Assembly: GCA_020632535.1 (NCBI GenBank)
Contig: JACKFJ010000003.1
Span: 102,166 to 166,165, forward strand
Direction: 5' to 3'
DNA length: 64,000 bases
Origin: Candidatus Omnitrophota bacterium
GTDB lineage: Bacteria; Omnitrophota; Gorgyraeia; Zapsychrales; JANLHA01
The position numbers were made by a program, and so were the translations under genes. The notes below the pieces were generated by a model. That model saw only the letters and a program-made list of their open reading frames with translations. It had not been told where the DNA came from and did not search any database. This document shows positions 11,103-19,054 of the stretch, one piece after another; position 1 is the stretch's first letter; each line of letters opens with the position of its first letter.

Positions 11103-11116
11103 AATTGTAGCATTTT

Positions 11117-11154
11117 AAGCCCATAGTAATACTTTGCTGTGGGCTTGCTTTTTT
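11117..11154 (+). terminator. rho-independent terminator after the redoxin gene
   Basis: The stem AAGCCCATAG...CTGTGGGCTT (1 mismatch) is followed by GCTTTTTT. Confidence 0.6.
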
Positions 11155-11162
11155 AATATAAA
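11134..11162 (+). promoter_or_regulatory. candidate promoter of the fur-family/metal ABC operon
   Basis: TTGCTG (11134-11139), 17 nt, TATAAA (11157-11162). This implies a very short (about 10 nt) leader before the ATG at 11181, and no SD is visible. Confidence 0.35.
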
Positions 11163-11182
11163 TATGAGACACTATCTCATAT
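11162..11182. promoter_or_regulatory. 8-5-8 inverted repeat; candidate operator overlapping the -10/+1 region and the fur-family start codon
   Basis: ATATGAGA-cacta-TCTCATAT has perfect 8-bp arms. The right arm ends within the ATG (11181-11183). Confidence 0.4.
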
Positions 11183-11639
11183 GAGAAAAAAAGCAACACA
11201 CCAGCACCTTGCAGAACATACCAAATACCGGCAATACCTATTAAAAAAAGGCCTCAAACTCAGCCGAGCGCGTGAAACTGTTTTCTGGGAAGTCATGGAA
11301 GCGCATGGTCACTTCGCAGCTGAGGAACTGGTCAAGCAATGCGCAATTCGAAATCGCGGTGTCTCACGCGCCACAATTTATCGCTCTCTTAAAGAACTTT
11401 TTGGTGCCGCCGTCATCAGGGAGACAGCTTTTGGTGAAAAGCATCATCACTTTGAGCATGTATATGATGAAAAACTTCATCACCATGCTCGCTGCATTCA
11501 CTGTTACAAAATTATTGAGGTTCCATGTCTACAAGAATACAAGAAGTATCTTGAGCTTTTAAAAAAGGAACATTTTCAAGTTCTCGGACATGAACTTCAT
11601 TTTTATGGAACCTGTCAAAACTGCCTGGAGATCAAATAA
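11181..11639 (+). CDS. Fur-family metalloregulator (Fur/Zur/Mur type not resolved)
   Basis: 152 aa. wHTH N-domain (SRARETVFWEVMEAHGHFAAEEL), a His-rich site (HHHFEH..HHH), and CxxC pairs (CIHC...CQNC). Confidence 0.85.
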   Translation: MRKKATHQHLAEHTKYRQYLLKKGLKLSRARETVFWEVMEAHGHFAAEELVKQCAIRNRGVSRATIYRSLKELFGAAVIRETAFGEKHHHFEHVYDEKLHHHARCIHCYKIIEVPCLQEYKKYLELLKKEHFQVLGHELHFYGTCQNCLEIK

Positions 11640-12568
11640 TGTACGATATAAATTTGAAGCAAAAATTATCAAATTTTTCATTTCTTCTTTTATTTGCAAT
11701 GCTGTTTTTTGTGCCAGACGCATACGCGGATAAACCAATAAAAATTGTTGCAACAATCGGTCAATTGTCCGATGTCGTTGCCAACGTTGGTGGTGAGCGC
11801 GTCAAAGTCGAAGGACTCATGGGTGCTGGTGTTGATCCGCATCTTTATAAGGCCAGCGAGGGGGATGTCCGTAAATTGCGTGAAGCACAAATCATTTTTT
11901 ATAATGGCCTTTTTTTAGAAGCCAAGATGGAAGACATCTTCAAGAAAATGCAACGTCGCGTCAAAACCGTTCCCGTTGGAGAAAGTATTCCTCGCGCCGA
12001 GTTACTGGAAAGTGAAGTGTTTCACGGCCATTTTGATCCACACATCTGGTTTGATGTCACACTATGGCAAAAAGTCACAATTAAAGTCAAAGAAACTTTA
12101 TGTGAATTTGACAACTTATATTGCAAGGATTATGAAAAGCGTGCTGTAGAATATTTAGAAAAACTAACTCAGCTGGATCAATTTATCAAAACCAGAGCAT
12201 TAGAAATATCAAAAGACCAACGTATTCTAGTAACAGCACATGACGCATTCCGCTACTTTGGCCGAAAATATGATTTTCAAGTGAAAGGTTTGCAGGGCAT
12301 CAGCACACAATCCGAAGCAGGTATAAACGATGTCGTAAATCTTGCCGACTTTATCGCTGAGCACAAAATCAAAGCAATTTTTATCGAATCTTCCGTGCCC
12401 GAACGTAATATTCAAGCTGTTCGTGAAGCGGTAAAATCACGCGGATGGGATGTAAAAATTGGCGGCGAACTTTTTTCGGATGCTATGGGTCATGAAGGTA
12501 GCTTTGAAGGTACTTATATCGGCATGGTCACACATAATATTAATACCATCGTTGACTCACTCAAATAA
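11639..12568 (+). CDS. metal ABC transporter substrate-binding protein (ZnuA/TroA/MntC cluster-9 family)
   Basis: 309 aa. N-terminal signal-like hydrophobic segment; DPHLY and DPHIWFD motifs. The ATG overlaps the fur-family TAA. Confidence 0.85.
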   Translation: MYDINLKQKLSNFSFLLLFAMLFFVPDAYADKPIKIVATIGQLSDVVANVGGERVKVEGLMGAGVDPHLYKASEGDVRKLREAQIIFYNGLFLEAKMEDIFKKMQRRVKTVPVGESIPRAELLESEVFHGHFDPHIWFDVTLWQKVTIKVKETLCEFDNLYCKDYEKRAVEYLEKLTQLDQFIKTRALEISKDQRILVTAHDAFRYFGRKYDFQVKGLQGISTQSEAGINDVVNLADFIAEHKIKAIFIESSVPERNIQAVREAVKSRGWDVKIGGELFSDAMGHEGSFEGTYIGMVTHNINTIVDSLK

Positions 12569-12578
12569 AGGAAACACC

Positions 12579-13346
12579 ATGACAAACACTATGCAATCCA
12601 ATTCATTAGCCATCGAAGTAACAGATTTGACCGTGGCCTATCAAGAAAAGCCAGTACTTTGGGACGTAGACTTTAATGTCCCACAAGGCGTTTTACTTGC
12701 CATTGTCGGACCCAATGGCGCCGGTAAATCAACATTAATTAAAACCATCCTTGGCCTTGTAAAACCAGTTGCCGGCCGTATCTTAGTACTTGGCGCGCAA
12801 TATCAGGCGCGAAAGCAATTGATTGCTTATGTCCCACAGCGAAGCAGTGTGGATTGGGATTTTCCAACTAACGTGCTCGACGTTGTCTTGATGGGACGCT
12901 ACGGACATCTTGGATGGATCAGAAGACCAAGCCCTAAAGATAAGAAATTGGCGATTGAATGTTTAGAGCGTGTCGGCATGGCGGACTTTGCTGGACGACA
13001 AATCAGTCAATTATCTGGCGGACAGCAGCAAAGAGTTTTTTTAGCACGTGCTTTTATTCAAGAAGCCTCAATTTATTTAATGGACGAGCCATTTGCCGGC
13101 GTAGACGCAACAACCGAAAAAAGTATTATTGAACTTCTCCGTGAAATTAAAAAAAGTGGAAAAACTGTAATCTGTGTCCATCACGATCTGGAAACACTTA
13201 AAGAATATTTTGACTGGGTGATGCTACTAAATGTCCGCCGAGTATCTTTAGGGCCGATTGCGACAGCGCTGACGCCAGAAAACCTCAAACGTGCTTATGG
13301 CGGCCGCGCATTATTTCTCGATCAAAAAGGAGACACCCGTGTTTGA
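12579..13346 (+). CDS. metal ABC transporter ATP-binding protein
   Basis: The ORF-track entry starts at 12459, but the ATG at 12579 follows AAAGGA. Walker A GPNGAGKST, signature LSGGQQQRV, Walker B IYLMDEP. Confidence 0.9.
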   Translation: MTNTMQSNSLAIEVTDLTVAYQEKPVLWDVDFNVPQGVLLAIVGPNGAGKSTLIKTILGLVKPVAGRILVLGAQYQARKQLIAYVPQRSSVDWDFPTNVLDVVLMGRYGHLGWIRRPSPKDKKLAIECLERVGMADFAGRQISQLSGGQQQRVFLARAFIQEASIYLMDEPFAGVDATTEKSIIELLREIKKSGKTVICVHHDLETLKEYFDWVMLLNVRRVSLGPIATALTPENLKRAYGGRALFLDQKGDTRV

Positions 13347-14478
13347 GCATGTATTCCACTTAATTGCGAGCAATTATACTTTGCAAATCGTTACACTCGG
13401 AGCTTTGATTTTAGGAATTACCGCAGGCGCTTTAGGAGCTTTTGCGGTTTTGCGAGAACAAAGTTTGCTAGGCGATGCCATTTCGCATGCGACGCTTCCC
13501 GGGGTAGGTCTCGCGTTTTTGATTACGCAGGATAAAAGTCCATTGACCTTATTAATTGGTGCGGGAATCGCCGGTTGGCTTGGCACCATTTGCGTCAAAT
13601 TAATAACACAATCAACTCGAGTTACCAAAGACGCGGCATTAGGAATCATCCTTTCGGTATTTTTTGGATTTGGCCTTGTCATCATTACGATTGTACAAAA
13701 GCTACCCACCGCAACCAAAGCGGGATTGGATAAATTTTTATTCGGCAATGCAGCAACTCTCCTTAAAGAAGACGTCGTGACAATGACTTATTTAAGCAGT
13801 ATTGTTTTACTGCTACTTATTCTCTTTTGGAAAGAATTTAAATTATTAACTTTCGATAATGATTTCTTTAAAAGTCTTGGATTGCCTTTTCACATCTTTG
13901 ATATCTTGCTCACGACTTTGATCGTCTCAGCGATCATCCTCGGCTTACAAACAGTTGGTGTTGTTTTAATGAGTGCCATGATTGTGGCGCCAGCTGCAGC
14001 CGCACGACAATGGACGGATCGATTGGGGGTTATGGTGATCCTGTCCTCATTCCTAGGAGCACTCTGTTGTGTCGCTGGCGCAATCACTAGCAGTATTATT
14101 CCTAATATGCCGACAGGACCAATCATTACTGTATATTTAAGTTTAACGGTTATTATTTCCTTATTTTTGGCGCCGCATCGAGGCTTGGTATGGGATTGGA
14201 TAAGAATTTTTCATCAGCGCGCCATGATCGAAAGCGCATCGATATTACAAAATCTTCTTATTCTCTCTGAAAGCCACACGGATCCATTTCATCCCCATGA
14301 AGCGGCAGTTTTAAAAACATTAGGGACTGACACACTCCGTCGGAATATCACAAAATTAGTTAGAGCTGGTTTAATTAAACAGTACCCCGGAAATTTAATA
14401 TCCTTAACACCATTGGGGTTGAAGAAAGCCAAAGTACTTACACATAACCTACATACTGAAAGCCAAAGGTTAATTTGA
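13339..14478 (+). CDS. ABC-3 family metal permease with a C-terminal DtxR-type winged-HTH extension
   Basis: The GTG at 13339 follows AAAGGAG and overlaps the ATPase stop. A polytopic core is followed by about 100 extra aa (14176-14475): ...VLKTLGTDTLRRNITKLVRAGLIKQYPGNLISLTPLGLKKAKVLTHNLHTESQRLI. This reads like the N-terminal DNA-binding domain of DtxR/MntR repressors. Confidence 0.8.
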   Translation: MFEHVFHLIASNYTLQIVTLGALILGITAGALGAFAVLREQSLLGDAISHATLPGVGLAFLITQDKSPLTLLIGAGIAGWLGTICVKLITQSTRVTKDAALGIILSVFFGFGLVIITIVQKLPTATKAGLDKFLFGNAATLLKEDVVTMTYLSSIVLLLLILFWKEFKLLTFDNDFFKSLGLPFHIFDILLTTLIVSAIILGLQTVGVVLMSAMIVAPAAAARQWTDRLGVMVILSSFLGALCCVAGAITSSIIPNMPTGPIITVYLSLTVIISLFLAPHRGLVWDWIRIFHQRAMIESASILQNLLILSESHTDPFHPHEAAVLKTLGTDTLRRNITKLVRAGLIKQYPGNLISLTPLGLKKAKVLTHNLHTESQRLI

Positions 14479-15587
14479 TGTCACCAAGTTTAGAAATCAT
14501 AATTTTAGCTTCCTTGGTCGCACTCACATGCGCTTTACCCGGAGTATTTCTTGTCTTACGACGAATTTCATTAATGAGTGATGCGATCAGCCACGCAATT
14601 CTGCTCGGAATTGTCGTTATGTTTTTTATAACCAAAGACCTGTCTTCACCGCTTTTATTGATCGGCGCGACGATAACCGGCGTCCTGACCGTGACCGTTA
14701 CCGAAATGCTGATCCGGACACAAAAAGTTAAAAAAGATACCGCGATTGGCTTAGTGTTTCCGTTCCTATTTTCCATTGGGGTCATTTTACTTAATAAATA
14801 CGCGTCGGGAATTCATCTTGACGCAGATTGCATTCTTTTTGGTGAAATTGCCTTCGCACCATTCGATCGATTTATCTTTCAAAATGTCGATCTTGGTCCA
14901 ATCGGGTTATGGTTAATGAGCGTTGTTTTTCTACTTAATTTAACGTTCATCATCGTATTTTATAAGGAATTAAAGCTCGCAACCTTTGATCCCGCGTTAG
15001 CAGCGGCTCTTGGTTTTACACCAATTCTTTTGCATTATGCACTCATGAGTTTAGTCAGTATTACCGCGGTCGGGGCTTTTGAAAATGTCGGATCCATCTT
15101 AGTCGTTGCTTTATTCATTGCTCCGCCGGCTACGGCATATCTTTTAACCAACCGCTTGTCCGTCATGCTGATCTTAAGCGGCGCAATTGGAATCATAGCG
15201 GCAATTTCCGGATATTGGCTCGCACACTTTCTGGATGCGAATATCGCGGGTTCAATGGCGACGATGTGTGGAGTTATTTTCTTTATTGTTTTTATCTTTG
15301 CACCAGAGCACGGCTGGCTCGCACGACAATTTTTTCGCCGTTTTAAACAATGGGATTTTGCCAAAGACATCCTGACTGTTCATCTACTGCAGACAGAACT
15401 TAATCACGCGGATCAAACAGAACAAATTGTAAGTCATATGACGGATCACATGCTCTGGGATCATCCATTTACCATCGATGTCATTAGTCGTTGCTTACAG
15501 GATGGATTGATTGTGCAAGAAGGCGAAAAATTAATCCTCACAAATTACGGACGCGAAAAAGCAAAAATTTCGATTTTAAAAGGTTGA
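14475..15587 (+). CDS. second ABC-3 family metal permease, also with a C-terminal wHTH-like extension
   Basis: ATGA overlap with the upstream permease. A polytopic core is followed by about 93 extra aa (15306-15584): ...FTIDVISRCLQDGLIVQEGEKLILTNYGREKAKISILKG. Confidence 0.8.
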   Translation: MMSPSLEIIILASLVALTCALPGVFLVLRRISLMSDAISHAILLGIVVMFFITKDLSSPLLLIGATITGVLTVTVTEMLIRTQKVKKDTAIGLVFPFLFSIGVILLNKYASGIHLDADCILFGEIAFAPFDRFIFQNVDLGPIGLWLMSVVFLLNLTFIIVFYKELKLATFDPALAAALGFTPILLHYALMSLVSITAVGAFENVGSILVVALFIAPPATAYLLTNRLSVMLILSGAIGIIAAISGYWLAHFLDANIAGSMATMCGVIFFIVFIFAPEHGWLARQFFRRFKQWDFAKDILTVHLLQTELNHADQTEQIVSHMTDHMLWDHPFTIDVISRCLQDGLIVQEGEKLILTNYGREKAKISILKG

Positions 15588-15619: not shown

Positions 15620-16807
15620 ATGAAATTTGTCTCTCGCAAATCGACGAACACCGATTCCATCGCAATCTTAGCTGATCTTACCAACGATCTTCCTCTCGAA
15701 GAATGGGATGCCGGTTTTATCTTTATCTCATTTTTTAGTCGTGAATCTGCCGGACAAATCGCGAATGAACTTCAAAAAAAAATCCGCTGCCATAATTTTT
15801 TAGGATGTTCGTCTGCCGGCGTCATCACCGATACAACGGAAATCGAACATCTACCCGCGGTGTCTCTGATCCTCATGAAATTTGACCATGTGACAATGCA
15901 GCCGTTTTATTTGAGCCAGAGCGAAATTTCCGCGATGACAAAGAATGAAGAGTGGTATGAATTTCTTGATGTCTATCCTAACGAAAAGCCGAAGTTCTTT
16001 ATCTTGCCGGATCCCTTTTCTATTGATATTAATCAACTGTTGTCATCATTTAATAAAGCTTACAATCTTTGTCCTGTCATTGGTGGACTTGCCAGCGGCG
16101 GCGCTCAAGCGGGTGACAATACATTGATTCTCAATAACACATTATACGAAGACGGATGTGTCGGTTTAAGCCTACAGGGTGATATTCGTGTTGAAACCGT
16201 CGTTTCCCAAGGATGTCGACCGATCGGTGAAAGTTATATTGTAACGAAAGCTGAAGGGAATGTGATTCATGAATTGGGAGGTCGTCCTTTCTATAAAGTC
16301 CTCGAAGAAGTTTTAAGCATCAAAGCTACTGATCGAGACCGCACATTAGCACAAGAAGCAATATTCGTTGGCATCGCTATGGATGAATATAAGCACGATT
16401 TAAAAACCGGAGACTTTTTAATTCGCCTTGTCATTGGCTTAGATCAAGAAAGCGGAGCTGGAGCCATCGCGGACTATATCCGCGTCGGCCAAACGATTCA
16501 ATTTCATGTCCGTGACGCGATCTCCGCAACTCAAGAATTAACCGACCTTATGCATACACAAATCAAGCGCCATCCGACAGATAAACCGCAGGGAGCACTG
16601 CTTTTTTCCTGCAATGGGCGCGGAAAAAACCTCTTTGGCGTGAGAGACCATGATCTAAGTATCGTTAAGGAACATGTCGGCAACATTCCGGTGGCAGGCT
16701 TCTTTTGCGCAGGTGAAATCGGTCCTGTTGGCGGACAAAATTTTGTACATGGATTTACGTCGAGCATTGCTTTATTCTATCCACTCACCCCGCCAACCAA
16801 ACATTAG
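15620..16807 (+). CDS. FIST-domain (N+C) putative sensory protein
   Basis: 395 aa, soluble. The layout and stretches such as GFFCAGEIGPVGGQNFVHGFT at the C-terminus match what I recall of FIST_C. This is recalled by pattern only. Confidence 0.65.
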   Translation: MKFVSRKSTNTDSIAILADLTNDLPLEEWDAGFIFISFFSRESAGQIANELQKKIRCHNFLGCSSAGVITDTTEIEHLPAVSLILMKFDHVTMQPFYLSQSEISAMTKNEEWYEFLDVYPNEKPKFFILPDPFSIDINQLLSSFNKAYNLCPVIGGLASGGAQAGDNTLILNNTLYEDGCVGLSLQGDIRVETVVSQGCRPIGESYIVTKAEGNVIHELGGRPFYKVLEEVLSIKATDRDRTLAQEAIFVGIAMDEYKHDLKTGDFLIRLVIGLDQESGAGAIADYIRVGQTIQFHVRDAISATQELTDLMHTQIKRHPTDKPQGALLFSCNGRGKNLFGVRDHDLSIVKEHVGNIPVAGFFCAGEIGPVGGQNFVHGFTSSIALFYPLTPPTKH

Positions 16808-16858
16808 CCTAATCATCGCTGTTGAGAAATTTACTGATTTGTGTTAGTTTATATCACG

Positions 16859-17230
16859 ATGAATAATACGACACCCAACTCAACAACACAAAACGCACCC
16901 AACAAGTCTGTTGTGATTTTGACTCCAGCCGCGGTTGAAAAGGTGCGATCAATGATGCAAAAAGAAAACAAACCCGACTACGGATTACGTGTCGGTGTTG
17001 TCACCGGCGGCTGTGCAGGATTATCATATGAAATGCGTTTGCAAAAAGCGGCTTATGAAAATGATGTCATTGTTGAACAAGACGGCATTAAAATGTTTGT
17101 CAATAATGAAAGCGTCGACTTCCTCAAGGGGATTGTTATTGATTACGTTGATACATTAAAAGAAAGCGGCTTTAAATATAGCAATCCCAACGCCAAGTCC
17201 AGTTGCGGCTGCGGAACTTCCTTTAGTTAG
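16859..17230 (+). CDS. IscA/ErpA/HesB-family A-type Fe-S carrier
   Basis: The ORF-track entry starts at GTG 16841; the ATG at 16859 gives MNNTTPN. Contains GGCAGLSY and the C-terminal SCGCGTSF motif. Confidence 0.85.
   Translation: MNNTTPNSTTQNAPNKSVVILTPAAVEKVRSMMQKENKPDYGLRVGVVTGGCAGLSYEMRLQKAAYENDVIVEQDGIKMFVNNESVDFLKGIVIDYVDTLKESGFKYSNPNAKSSCGCGTSFS

Positions 17231-19054
<1,824 letters not shown>

Follow-up and report, generated by a model that had tools for sequence, protein, structure and literature searches.

DtxR-type winged-helix tails on both permeases of a Tro/Psa-type metal ABC importer: a possible transporter-attached metal-sensing module

Psa/Tro/Znu-type ABC importers of metals act as virulence factors and are central systems of metal homeostasis; they are regarded as being controlled at the level of transcription, by DtxR/MntR, Fur and Zur. 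To our knowledge, two structures of such importers have been solved, both of them without a cytoplasmic appendage. Cytoplasmic appendages that bind the transported substrate and stop import are experimentally established for other ABC importers, namely the C2 domain of MetN and the C-terminal domain of ModC. Those domains are borne by the ATPase and have other folds, whereas the domains described here are borne by the permeases, and trans-inhibition can be suggested for them by analogy only. A winged helix with the look of a transcription factor is also found in FeoC, the small partner of the Fe2+ transporter FeoB, which is thought to work through protein-protein contact. FeoC, however, is a separate small protein on a different class of transporter, while the winged helix-turn-helix (wHTH) domains of the present locus are part of the permeases themselves; among the Pfam families listed for these domains, there was no match to FeoC.

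The closest described arrangement is the chlamydial fusion of the permease YtgC to the repressor YtgR, for which both cleavage and repression have been shown (PMC5599777, PMC6504234). A second point of comparison is the TroABCD-TroR system of Treponema, which resembles the present locus in transporter family and gene order and in which TroR is a separate DtxR-type regulator; TroD has 366/367 aa and TroC 298-304 aa (PMC2628430). The structural reference is PsaC, which has nine transmembrane helices (TMs) with TM9 in the dimer interface, and of which a C-terminal GFP fusion served as expression construct (PMC8346216).

The window, a stretch of 64,000 nucleotides from a Candidatus Omnitrophota bacterium, encodes a Tro/Psa-type Mn/Fe/Zn ABC system in the order Fur-family regulator, substrate-binding protein (SBP), ATPase, permease 1 (P1) and permease 2 (P2) (Table 1). 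The ZnuA-family SBP and the ABC ATPase lie directly upstream of the permeases, with overlapping start and stop codons. The start of the ATPase at 12579 agrees with the gene call in a relative (L081). P1 (13339-14478) starts with a GTG at 13339 that is preceded by AAAGGAGA and overlaps with the ATPase stop codon. P2 (14478-15587; 369 aa according to gene callers) most likely starts with the ATG at 14478, in a TGATG overlap with the stop of P1. Each ABC-3 core comprises about 278 aa, PF00950 covering residues 13-277 of P1 with 233 bits and residues 9-275 of P2 with 160 bits, against a gathering cut-off of 20.1. PsaC (7kyp) matches the two permeases at E 1e-33 and 1e-30, in P1 over residues 14-281, and P2 is 100% identical to a metal ABC transporter permease (P0121) from a Candidatus Omnitrophica MAG. 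Read by eye in the translations, GDAISHA (P1) and SDAISHA (P2) stand at the position expected for the Asp/His metal site, which in PsaC coordinates metal through D46/H50 (PMC8346216).

Table 1. Positions of the importer genes, the permease tails and neighbouring features in the window
Feature	Position	Strand	Basis or remark
Candidate operator or start-codon hairpin	11162..11182	+	Perfect palindrome ATATGAGA-N5-TCTCATAT over the start codon of the Fur-family gene
Fur-family regulator, gene 1 of the operon	11181..11639	+	Pfam FUR, E 1e-18
Periplasmic metal-binding protein, ZnuA/TroA/PsaA family	11639..12568	+	Pfam ZnuA, E 4e-72
ABC ATPase, 255 aa, without C-terminal regulatory domain	12579..13346	+	Pfam ABC_tran, E 8e-31
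Permease 1 ABC-3 transmembrane core, residues 1-279	13339..14175	+	PF00950, E 5e-69
Tail 1 linker helix, tail residues 1-20, HRGLVWDWIRIFHQRAMIES	14176..14235	+	Basic, Trp/Arg-rich; AlphaFold2 helix 2-33
Tail 1 DtxR-type wHTH, tail residues 21-100	14236..14475	+	AlphaFold2 pLDDT 83, Foldseek, hhalign
Tail 1 motif DPFHPHE, tail residues 36-42	14281..14301	+	Lowest-entropy segment of tail 1
Permease 2 ABC-3 transmembrane core	14478..15305	+	PF00950, E 9e-47
Tail 2 basic linker helix, tail residues 1-17	15306..15356	+	AlphaFold2 helix 2-32
Tail 2 DtxR-type wHTH, tail residues 18-93	15357..15584	+	AlphaFold2, PDB matches, hhalign; net charge -4
Tail 2 His/Glu/Trp cluster (H26, E31, E39, H44, H48, W51)	15381..15458	+	On alpha1, loop and alpha2
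FIST-domain gene directly downstream of permease 2	15620..16807	+	Pfam FIST and FIST_C

An initial interpretation of this DNA, made by inspection of the letters and translations (the sequence-only reading), had proposed that both permeases run on beyond the transmembrane core into a wHTH. Open reading frames and translations agree with it: the PF00950 cores are followed by 100 aa in P1 (tail 1, 14176-14475) and by 93 aa in P2 (tail 2, 15306-15584), and both peptide strings that had been quoted are present. Homologues of 365-390 aa, numbering in the hundreds, can be aligned through the C-terminal end at 93-100% coverage and the AlphaFold2 models are confident (mean pLDDT 83.1 for tail 1 and 82.6 for tail 2), which identifies the tails as real conserved domains and not read-through. 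The models and their Foldseek matches likewise uphold the wHTH fold. In tail 1 it consists of alpha1, a beta strand, alpha2, alpha3, a beta-hairpin wing and alpha4, and the window proteins end 15-20 residues past the wing. Each wHTH is joined to its core by an interfacial linker helix, with a mean net charge in the family of +4.1 (tail 1) and +3.8 (tail 2); R2, G3, W6, R10 and R15 of the tail 1 linker are conserved at 90% or more. By the positive-inside rule these basic linkers, together with the topology of PsaC, place the tails in the cytoplasm.

The tail wHTHs are homologous to the N-terminal domain of the DtxR-family repressors, with the dimerisation/metal-binding domain missing. The two tails are paralogues, matching one another in hhalign at a probability of 95% (E 2e-8). 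A profile of the DtxR N-domain is matched by tail 1 at a probability of 95% (E 4e-8) and by tail 2 at 77%; no shuffled or reversed control exceeded 2.5%. The best structural matches of tail 2 in the PDB are DtxR, IdeR and MntR (1.4-1.5 A over 69 columns), which also make up most of its top 50 PDB matches; tail 1 retrieves wHTH proteins in Foldseek at probability 0.99-1.0, with DtxR at rank 38 (3.1 A). Single-sequence controls, with control sequences entered by hand, preferred DtxR/MntR over MarR, Fur, IscR and ArsR. PF02742 (Fe_dep_repr_C) has no match in either window permease, and hhalign of the tails against the DtxR dimerisation domain returns a probability below 1%. The assignment to the DtxR type and the truncation, both part of the sequence-only reading, are thereby borne out. 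Of the two Pfam profiles that it had named for a check, PF00950 recognises the cores (Table 1) and PF01325 (Fe_dep_repress) matches neither window tail above threshold.

Within the tail families, PF01325 was matched by 2 of 41 tail-1 members, at E 0.095 or worse, and by no tail-2 member. A Pfam vote over the members went elsewhere, to HVO_A0261_N, DUF6429 and MarR_2 for tail 1 and to HemN_C for tail 2, so that membership of PF01325 was rejected while the remote homology still holds. Single-sequence searches of Pfam, NCBIfam and the PDB with the tails gave nothing significant (best scores HTH_20 at E 0.015, MntR NF008273 at E 0.1 and ArlR at E 0.36) and profiles were therefore needed; profile searches of PDB sequences yielded sub-significant wHTH matches only (eS10, S19e, ScaR, IclR, ZitR, DtxR, IdeR). 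The tails of the window permeases have no Pfam or NCBIfam family above threshold. No Pfam model was found for the tail domain, which makes it invisible to routine annotation, and literature searches returned no paper on truncated wHTH tails of ABC-3 permeases.

Although the sequence-only reading took the arrangement to be distinctive, the paired tails are an old and widely conserved trait of this permease clade and the norm for a large Tro-like clade. In a set of 80 related loci that spans more than 15 phyla, tail 1 is present in 78, tail 2 in 76 and both in 74. Spirochaete loci (L028, L039, L061) carry tails, and Treponema TroD matches the tail-2-bearing permease, by length alone (PMC2628430). 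Treponema TroC, again by length, is probably without tail 1, unlike the window with its tails on both permeases, so that the pair would not be obligatory. A separate full-length DtxR regulator, comparable to TroR, is encoded in 42 of the 80 loci; in the window and its closest relatives (L081, L082) its place is occupied by a Fur-family gene, which lies upstream of the transporter genes. A tblastn search of plasmids with both tails gave no match.

Rare relatives that carry the tail linker and wHTH together with a true DtxR dimerisation/metal-binding domain tie the tails to fusions of the YtgC-YtgR type. In two such proteins (P0388 and P0356), the ABC-3 core leads into a linker and wHTH resembling those of tail 1, and these are followed by Fe_dep_repr_C (residues 355-424 in P0388). 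The tail-1 HMM, run against the whole library, detects them at E 2.7e-8 and 1.1e-10, respectively, and the matching stretch of each can be aligned, in the same register, to a DtxR HMM of two domains; with free DtxR, the fused domain shares 36-38% identity across 78% of the query. A homologue search with the fused domain of P0388 returned fragments of similar fusions and free DtxR only, and no named chlamydial YtgC. The kinship with YtgC-YtgR-like fusions that had been proposed is supported by the architecture of these two proteins, from which the likeness is drawn: a TroC-like ABC-3 core continues into a cytoplasmic DtxR-type wHTH, within an operon of the SBP-ATPase-P1-P2 type. In contrast to YtgC-YtgR, the window tails stop after alpha4 and form no complete repressor domain, they are attached to both permeases and not just to the TroC-like one, and a separate regulator gene is present. 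The recognition helix of the tails, moreover, is not conserved, and the tails have His/Glu motifs of their own that are absent from P0388. A WDW in the linker was considered as a possible counterpart of the chlamydial WWW motif.

With DtxR, IdeR, MntR and TroR the tails share the N-terminal wHTH fold, a detectable sequence kinship and ties to Mn/Fe import operons. They differ in not being soluble dimeric repressors, in having no PF02742 domain and falling below the PF01325 threshold, and in a variable DNA-reading helix on domains that are mostly acidic. In both tails, conservation is lowest in the recognition helix (entropy 2.15 bits in tail 1 and 1.98 bits in tail 2; mean over the tails, 1.79), whereas in the DtxR genes that neighbour them in these loci it is highest there (1.05 bits; mean, 1.44). 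Over 73 pairs, the wHTHs have mean net charges of -2.1 and -1.6, compared with +4.1 for the DtxR N-domain. The combination of a conserved recognition helix and a basic DNA surface that characterises a DtxR repressor was not found, tail 1 of the window being exceptional at +5 overall (mean of close homologues, +1.9) and +4 over alpha3 and the wing; tail 2 of the window carries -3 over alpha3 and the wing. Charge complementarity between the tails was considered as a general trait and rejected: it holds in the window (+5/-4), but the 73 pairs show no correlation (r = -0.04).

These properties bear directly on the suggestion, first made in the sequence-only reading, that the tails constitute a heterodimeric DtxR-like DNA-binding regulator, tethered to the membrane or released by proteolysis, in which the permease dimer would stand in for the dimerisation domain. 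Such a role is consistent with the homology that relates the tails both to the part of DtxR that binds DNA and to the wHTH domains in fusions of permease and repressor. It also accords with the basic character of window tail 1, the DtxR-dimer-like geometry of a wHTH pair on a pseudo-symmetric dimer, and the precedent of YtgR, which is cut from YtgC and represses transcription (PMC5599777). The perfect palindrome at the operon head points the same way, but is more simply explained as a Fur-family operator or a hairpin; it is the only match of its kind in the window, although 27 of 100 shuffles give one or more, and its core, ATGA(G/T)ACACT(A/G)TCTCA(T/C)ATG, was found again at the equivalent site in the relative L082. 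The variability of a helix that is conserved in the real DtxR genes, the acidity of tail 2 and, on average, of both wHTHs, and the full DtxR or Fur regulator already encoded in the operons all argue against DNA binding. Nor were stand-alone tail genes found, the short matches in a representative search being gene fragments that still contain TM9. We consider heterodimeric DNA-binding regulation unlikely, although tail 1, which is basic in the window's own clade, may bind nucleic acid there.

Conservation in the tails is concentrated in His/Glu clusters that lie outside the recognition helix. In the tail 1 motif, H41 is present in 41 of 41 members, H39 in 39 and P37 in 38 (H39 and H41 are P1 residues 318 and 320). 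Tail 2 retains H26, E39 and W51 in all 44 members, E31 in 43, and H44 and H48 in 41 each. Across the GTDB loci, tail 1 H41 and tail 2 H26, E39 and W51 are near-invariant, and H44 and H48 are partly substituted; the substitution of H39 and of H44/H48 in a minority of lineages counts against a strict metal site. Judging from their helix positions, the conserved His/Glu residues are assumed to cluster in three dimensions. In the sole operon with a full DtxR metal-binding domain on P1, P1 is without DPxHxH and the P2 tail is without H44 and H48, which, like the conservation itself, speaks for a ligand site.

We give roughly even odds to the interpretation that the tails are a regulatory or metal-sensing module attached to the transporter, acting on the importer and not as a transcription factor, and providing metal feedback on transport. 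The tails would leave TM9 into the cytoplasm and lie side by side under the translocation pathway, as the position of TM9 in the permease dimer interface of PsaC suggests. Cytosolic metal would be bound by the His/Glu clusters, that is, DPxHxH in tail 1 and H26, E31, E39, H44 and H48 in tail 2, and would feed back on transport, either by trans-inhibition or by gating the cycle of the ATPase. Control of transcription would fall to the separate Fur regulator here and to DtxR in other lineages.

The tails could instead be structural remnants of an ancestral permease-DtxR fusion, kept for assembly or stability only, for example by docking onto the dimeric ATPase or by holding P1 and P2 together as a heterodimer, with neither ligand sensing nor DNA binding. 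Their faster evolution (identities of 37% and 48% for the tails, 66% and 68% for the cores) would fit, as would their matches to winged helices that do not bind DNA (HemN_C, the dimerisation domains of O-methyltransferases, HVO_A0261_N). Tail-less PsaC and ZnuB are functional, and Treponema TroC, judged by length, does without tail 1 (PMC2628430). However, invariant or near-invariant His, Glu and Trp residues recur across phyla at roughly equivalent positions of two paralogous domains, which exceeds what maintenance of a fold needs, and both tails have been kept in 74 of 80 loci; a purely structural role seems improbable. A chaperone-like hand-off, in which the tails would receive the ion on its exit from the translocation pathway and deliver it to ligands or proteins of the cytosol without inhibiting transport, appears very unlikely. 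It draws on the identical His/Glu clusters and on the fact that the tails begin at TM9, which lies in the dimer interface close to the exit on the cytoplasmic side (PMC8346216), but the present data fit metal sensing equally, the linker helices of about 20-30 residues may hold the domains away from the exit, and tail-less relatives import metal efficiently (PMC8346216).

Metal sensing by the tails can be extended to a bolder proposal, which we advance tentatively and regard as possible rather than probable. The tail pair would be a membrane-anchored, pseudo-dimeric sensor in which cytosolic Mn, Fe or Zn at the His/Glu clusters closes the importer directly, and would represent the first trans-inhibition device carried by the permeases of an ABC importer for metals. 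Contact with DNA might persist in some lineages, in addition or instead, and free DtxR, the YtgCR fusions and the tails would be stages of one series. If this is true, a DtxR-derived pair of permease domains would provide fast, post-translational feedback on metal import, and the chlamydial YtgC-YtgR fusion would be one end of an evolutionary series with truncated tails in many phyla. Should the tails be inert remnants, the finding reduces to a useful annotation note.

The surroundings of the importer are conserved as well. The Fur-family gene keeps its position in L081 and L082, and the gene order that includes the FIST-domain gene is kept in the close relatives L081, L082, L083 and L001.

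The importer of the window is encoded by a five-gene operon, delimited from the window ORFs and Pfam and set out in the table below. The genes are coupled translationally: the GTG start of the first permease gene, P1 (13339), overlaps the stop codon of the ATPase gene, and the ATG of the second, P2 (14478), shares the sequence TGATG with the stop of P1. The same genes occur on a 6.9-kb public contig, and a Candidatus Omnitrophica MAG encodes a protein with 100% identity to P2.

Genes of the metal-importer operon, in window positions
Gene product	Position	Strand
Fur-family regulator	11181-11639	+
ZnuA/TroA/PsaA-type binding protein (SBP)	11639-12568	+
ABC ATPase	12579-13346	+
P1, ABC-3 permease	13339-14478	+
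P2, ABC-3 permease, paralogue of P1	14478-15587	+

In P1 the Pfam ABC-3 domain spans residues 13-277 and in P2 residues 9-275; for the remaining 100 and 93 amino acids (tail 1 and tail 2), neither Pfam nor NCBIfam gave a family match above threshold. The sequence-only reading had placed extra C-terminal tails on both permeases at exactly these positions and is confirmed in this. Homologue searches returned hundreds of permeases of 365-390 amino acids that align through the tails, which identifies these as real, conserved domains; the precomputed Pfam annotation of the homologues consists of ABC-3 and FecCD, with a family in the tail region (HVO_A0261_N) added in two hits only. Excised into two family alignments of 41 (tail 1) and 44 (tail 2) sequences, the tails match one another with an hhalign probability of 95% (E 2e-8), a homology in line with that of the permease cores, which are paralogues too. 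Confident AlphaFold2 models (pLDDT 83.1 and 82.6) give both the same layout, in which a long helix comprising the linker and alpha1 is followed by a short strand or helix, then by alpha2 and alpha3, a beta-hairpin wing and a helix at the C-terminus, and thus predict a winged helix-turn-helix (wHTH) fold.

Single-sequence searches with the tails yielded nothing useful in assigning them to a wHTH family. Pfam votes taken across each family went to HVO_A0261_N, DUF6429 and MarR_2 for tail 1 and to HemN_C for tail 2, all of them generic or non-DNA-binding winged-helix families. Since Fe_dep_repress (PF01325) was matched in only 2 of 41 tail-1 members and other families were favoured, membership of the tails in PF01325 is ruled out; of the two profiles proposed for checking in the sequence-only reading, PF00950 is matched by both permeases and PF01325 by neither tail of the window. 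In Foldseek searches of the PDB, DtxR, IdeR or MntR make up the majority of the best 50 matches to tail 2 (69 columns, 1.4-1.5 A). With tail 1, the top ranks go to MarR-family proteins in long and loose alignments, and DtxR follows at rank 38 (3.1 A). Profile-profile comparison with 40 full-length DtxR genes adjoining related operons matched the DtxR N-domain with tail 1 at 95% (E 4e-8; 68 columns, DtxR residues 9-76) and with tail 2 at 77% (E 2e-5), whereas reversed and column-shuffled controls reached at most 2.5%; neither tail matched the DtxR dimerisation domain in this comparison. Among single-sequence controls, with provisional reference sequences for all regulators except the window's own Fur, DtxR scored 78% with tail 1 and 69% with tail 2, MntR 75% with tail 1, MarR 56% and 0.2%, respectively, and Fur, IscR and ArsR below 5%.

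Proteins intermediate between the tails and complete DtxR fusions were also recovered. The tail-1 profile, searched against 1.84 billion representative sequences, gave only ABC-3 C-termini, 278 of them at E <=0.001. Two of these, P0388 (431 aa) and P0356, carry the RGLxWxWLR linker of the tails and a wHTH matched by this profile, and after it a genuine Fe_dep_repr_C domain (E 2e-25). Their linker-wHTH stretch is in register with a two-domain DtxR HMM, and the fused domain shares 36-38% identity with free DtxR proteins across 78% of its length. Structure, profile-profile comparison, single-sequence controls and intermediates are four independent lines that agree on a DtxR affinity. It is thus well supported that the tails correspond to the wHTH half of a YtgC-YtgR-like fusion between permease and DtxR and lack the half for dimerisation and metal binding, and the initial description of them as truncated, DtxR-type and YtgC-YtgR-related finds support.

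The P0388 locus (L084, 116-2526) represents a rare operon type, in which the DtxR-like domain at the end of P1 is complete, with both wHTH and Fe_dep_repr_C, and the 372-aa P2 ends in only a tail-2-like wHTH; in evolutionary terms it looks intermediate between YtgCR-type fusions and the double-tail type. A further protein from the representative search, P0319 (1614 aa), contains eight repeated HTH_45-like winged-helix units and was matched by the tail-1 profile via the wing part.

The arrangement had been considered distinctive, which its distribution contradicts. A GTDB scan with one genome per species gave 80 loci, from Planctomycetota, Thermodesulfobacteriota, Poribacteria, Chloroflexota, Dadabacteria, Acidobacteriota, Calditrichota, Ignavibacteria, Rhodothermales, Spirochaetia, Leptospirales, Fibrobacterota, Zixibacteria, KSB1 and others. 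Tail 1 is present in 78 of these, tail 2 in 76 and both in 74, and the gene order SBP, ATPase, P1, P2 is without exception; the tails are a family-wide feature, not a peculiarity of the window. The founding Tro system probably has tail 2 and lacks tail 1, judging by the protein lengths of Treponema TroD (366/367 aa) and TroC (298-304 aa) (PMC2628430). Unlike P1 and P2, PsaC and ZnuB, the two ABC-3 permeases with solved structures, are tail-less. Our literature searches found no paper describing such truncated tails, a widespread and apparently undescribed form of the permease-DtxR fusion already known.

Tail 1 conserves P37, H39 and H41, a DPxHxH motif between alpha1 and alpha2, and tail 2 conserves H26, E31, E39, H44, H48 and W51, located in alpha1, the loop and alpha2; the two clusters occupy about equivalent positions in the tail 1-tail 2 alignment. 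In the broader set H41, H26, E39 and W51 are near-invariant, with minority substitutions at H39, H44 and H48. In the one operon (n=1) with a full DtxR metal-binding domain on P1, DPxHxH is missing from that permease and H44 and H48 from the P2 tail, an anecdote that fits the His/Glu clusters being a replacement for the lost metal site. The tail linkers are strongly basic and Trp-rich, which points to a cytoplasmic location. In PsaC, whose expression construct was a C-terminal GFP fusion, TM9, the last helix, contributes to the dimer interface (PMC8346216), so the two tails should emerge side by side under the transporter. The best explanation, in our view, is that the tails would serve as a transporter-bound module on the cytoplasmic side, whose His/Glu clusters would sense metal and feed back on transport, while transcription would be handled separately by Fur or DtxR. 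This is a concrete and testable hypothesis of how metal ABC importers may be controlled post-translationally.

Two rivals to such a feedback module are a role in metal hand-off and a purely structural remnant. The evidence leans against the proposal of the sequence-only reading, a membrane-tethered or released heterodimeric DNA-binding regulator, which is not supported: the recognition helix, the most conserved segment in same-locus DtxR genes (entropy 1.05 bits versus 1.44 overall), is the least conserved segment of the tails (2.15 and 1.98 bits versus 1.79), the mean net charge across 73 paired loci is -2.1 and -1.6 for the wHTHs versus +4.1 for DtxR N-domains, tail 2 of the window has a net charge of -4 (alpha3 and wing, -3), and the operons carry their own complete regulator. 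Tail 1 is, however, basic in the window (+5) and close relatives, and nucleic-acid binding by tail 1 is conceivable in this clade.

The operon head shows a swap of regulators. A full-length separate DtxR gene (~225 aa) is found in 42 of the 80 GTDB loci, mostly directly upstream of the SBP gene, and a Fur gene in none, whereas the window, the contig that duplicates it and a relative with 64% identity have Fur at the head together with a downstream FIST gene. A perfect 8+8 palindrome, ATATGAGA-CACTA-TCTCATAT (11162-11182), runs into the start codon ATG of the Fur-family gene. It lies only ~15 nt past the terminator (11116-11147) of the gene before, with no visible Shine-Dalgarno sequence. The 64%-identical relative has a near-identical core in the corresponding position (L082, 2603-2627); the palindrome could be a Fur-family operator or a start-codon hairpin.

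Directly 3' of permease 2, a FIST/FIST_C sensor-domain gene occurs in the window (15620-16807), in three window relatives beyond the GTDB set (L081-L083) and in the Planctomycetales locus L001, whose contig stops inside it; it was not found in the remaining 79 GTDB loci. In the window (16841-17230) and in L081-L083 it is followed by the gene of an IscA-like Fe-S assembly protein, and a link of the importer to Fe-S metabolism or signalling is possible. The 602-aa ORF 3' of the IscA-like gene (17246-19054) is, judging by its sequence, presumably ThiC, the phosphomethylpyrimidine synthase, an Fe-S radical-SAM enzyme.
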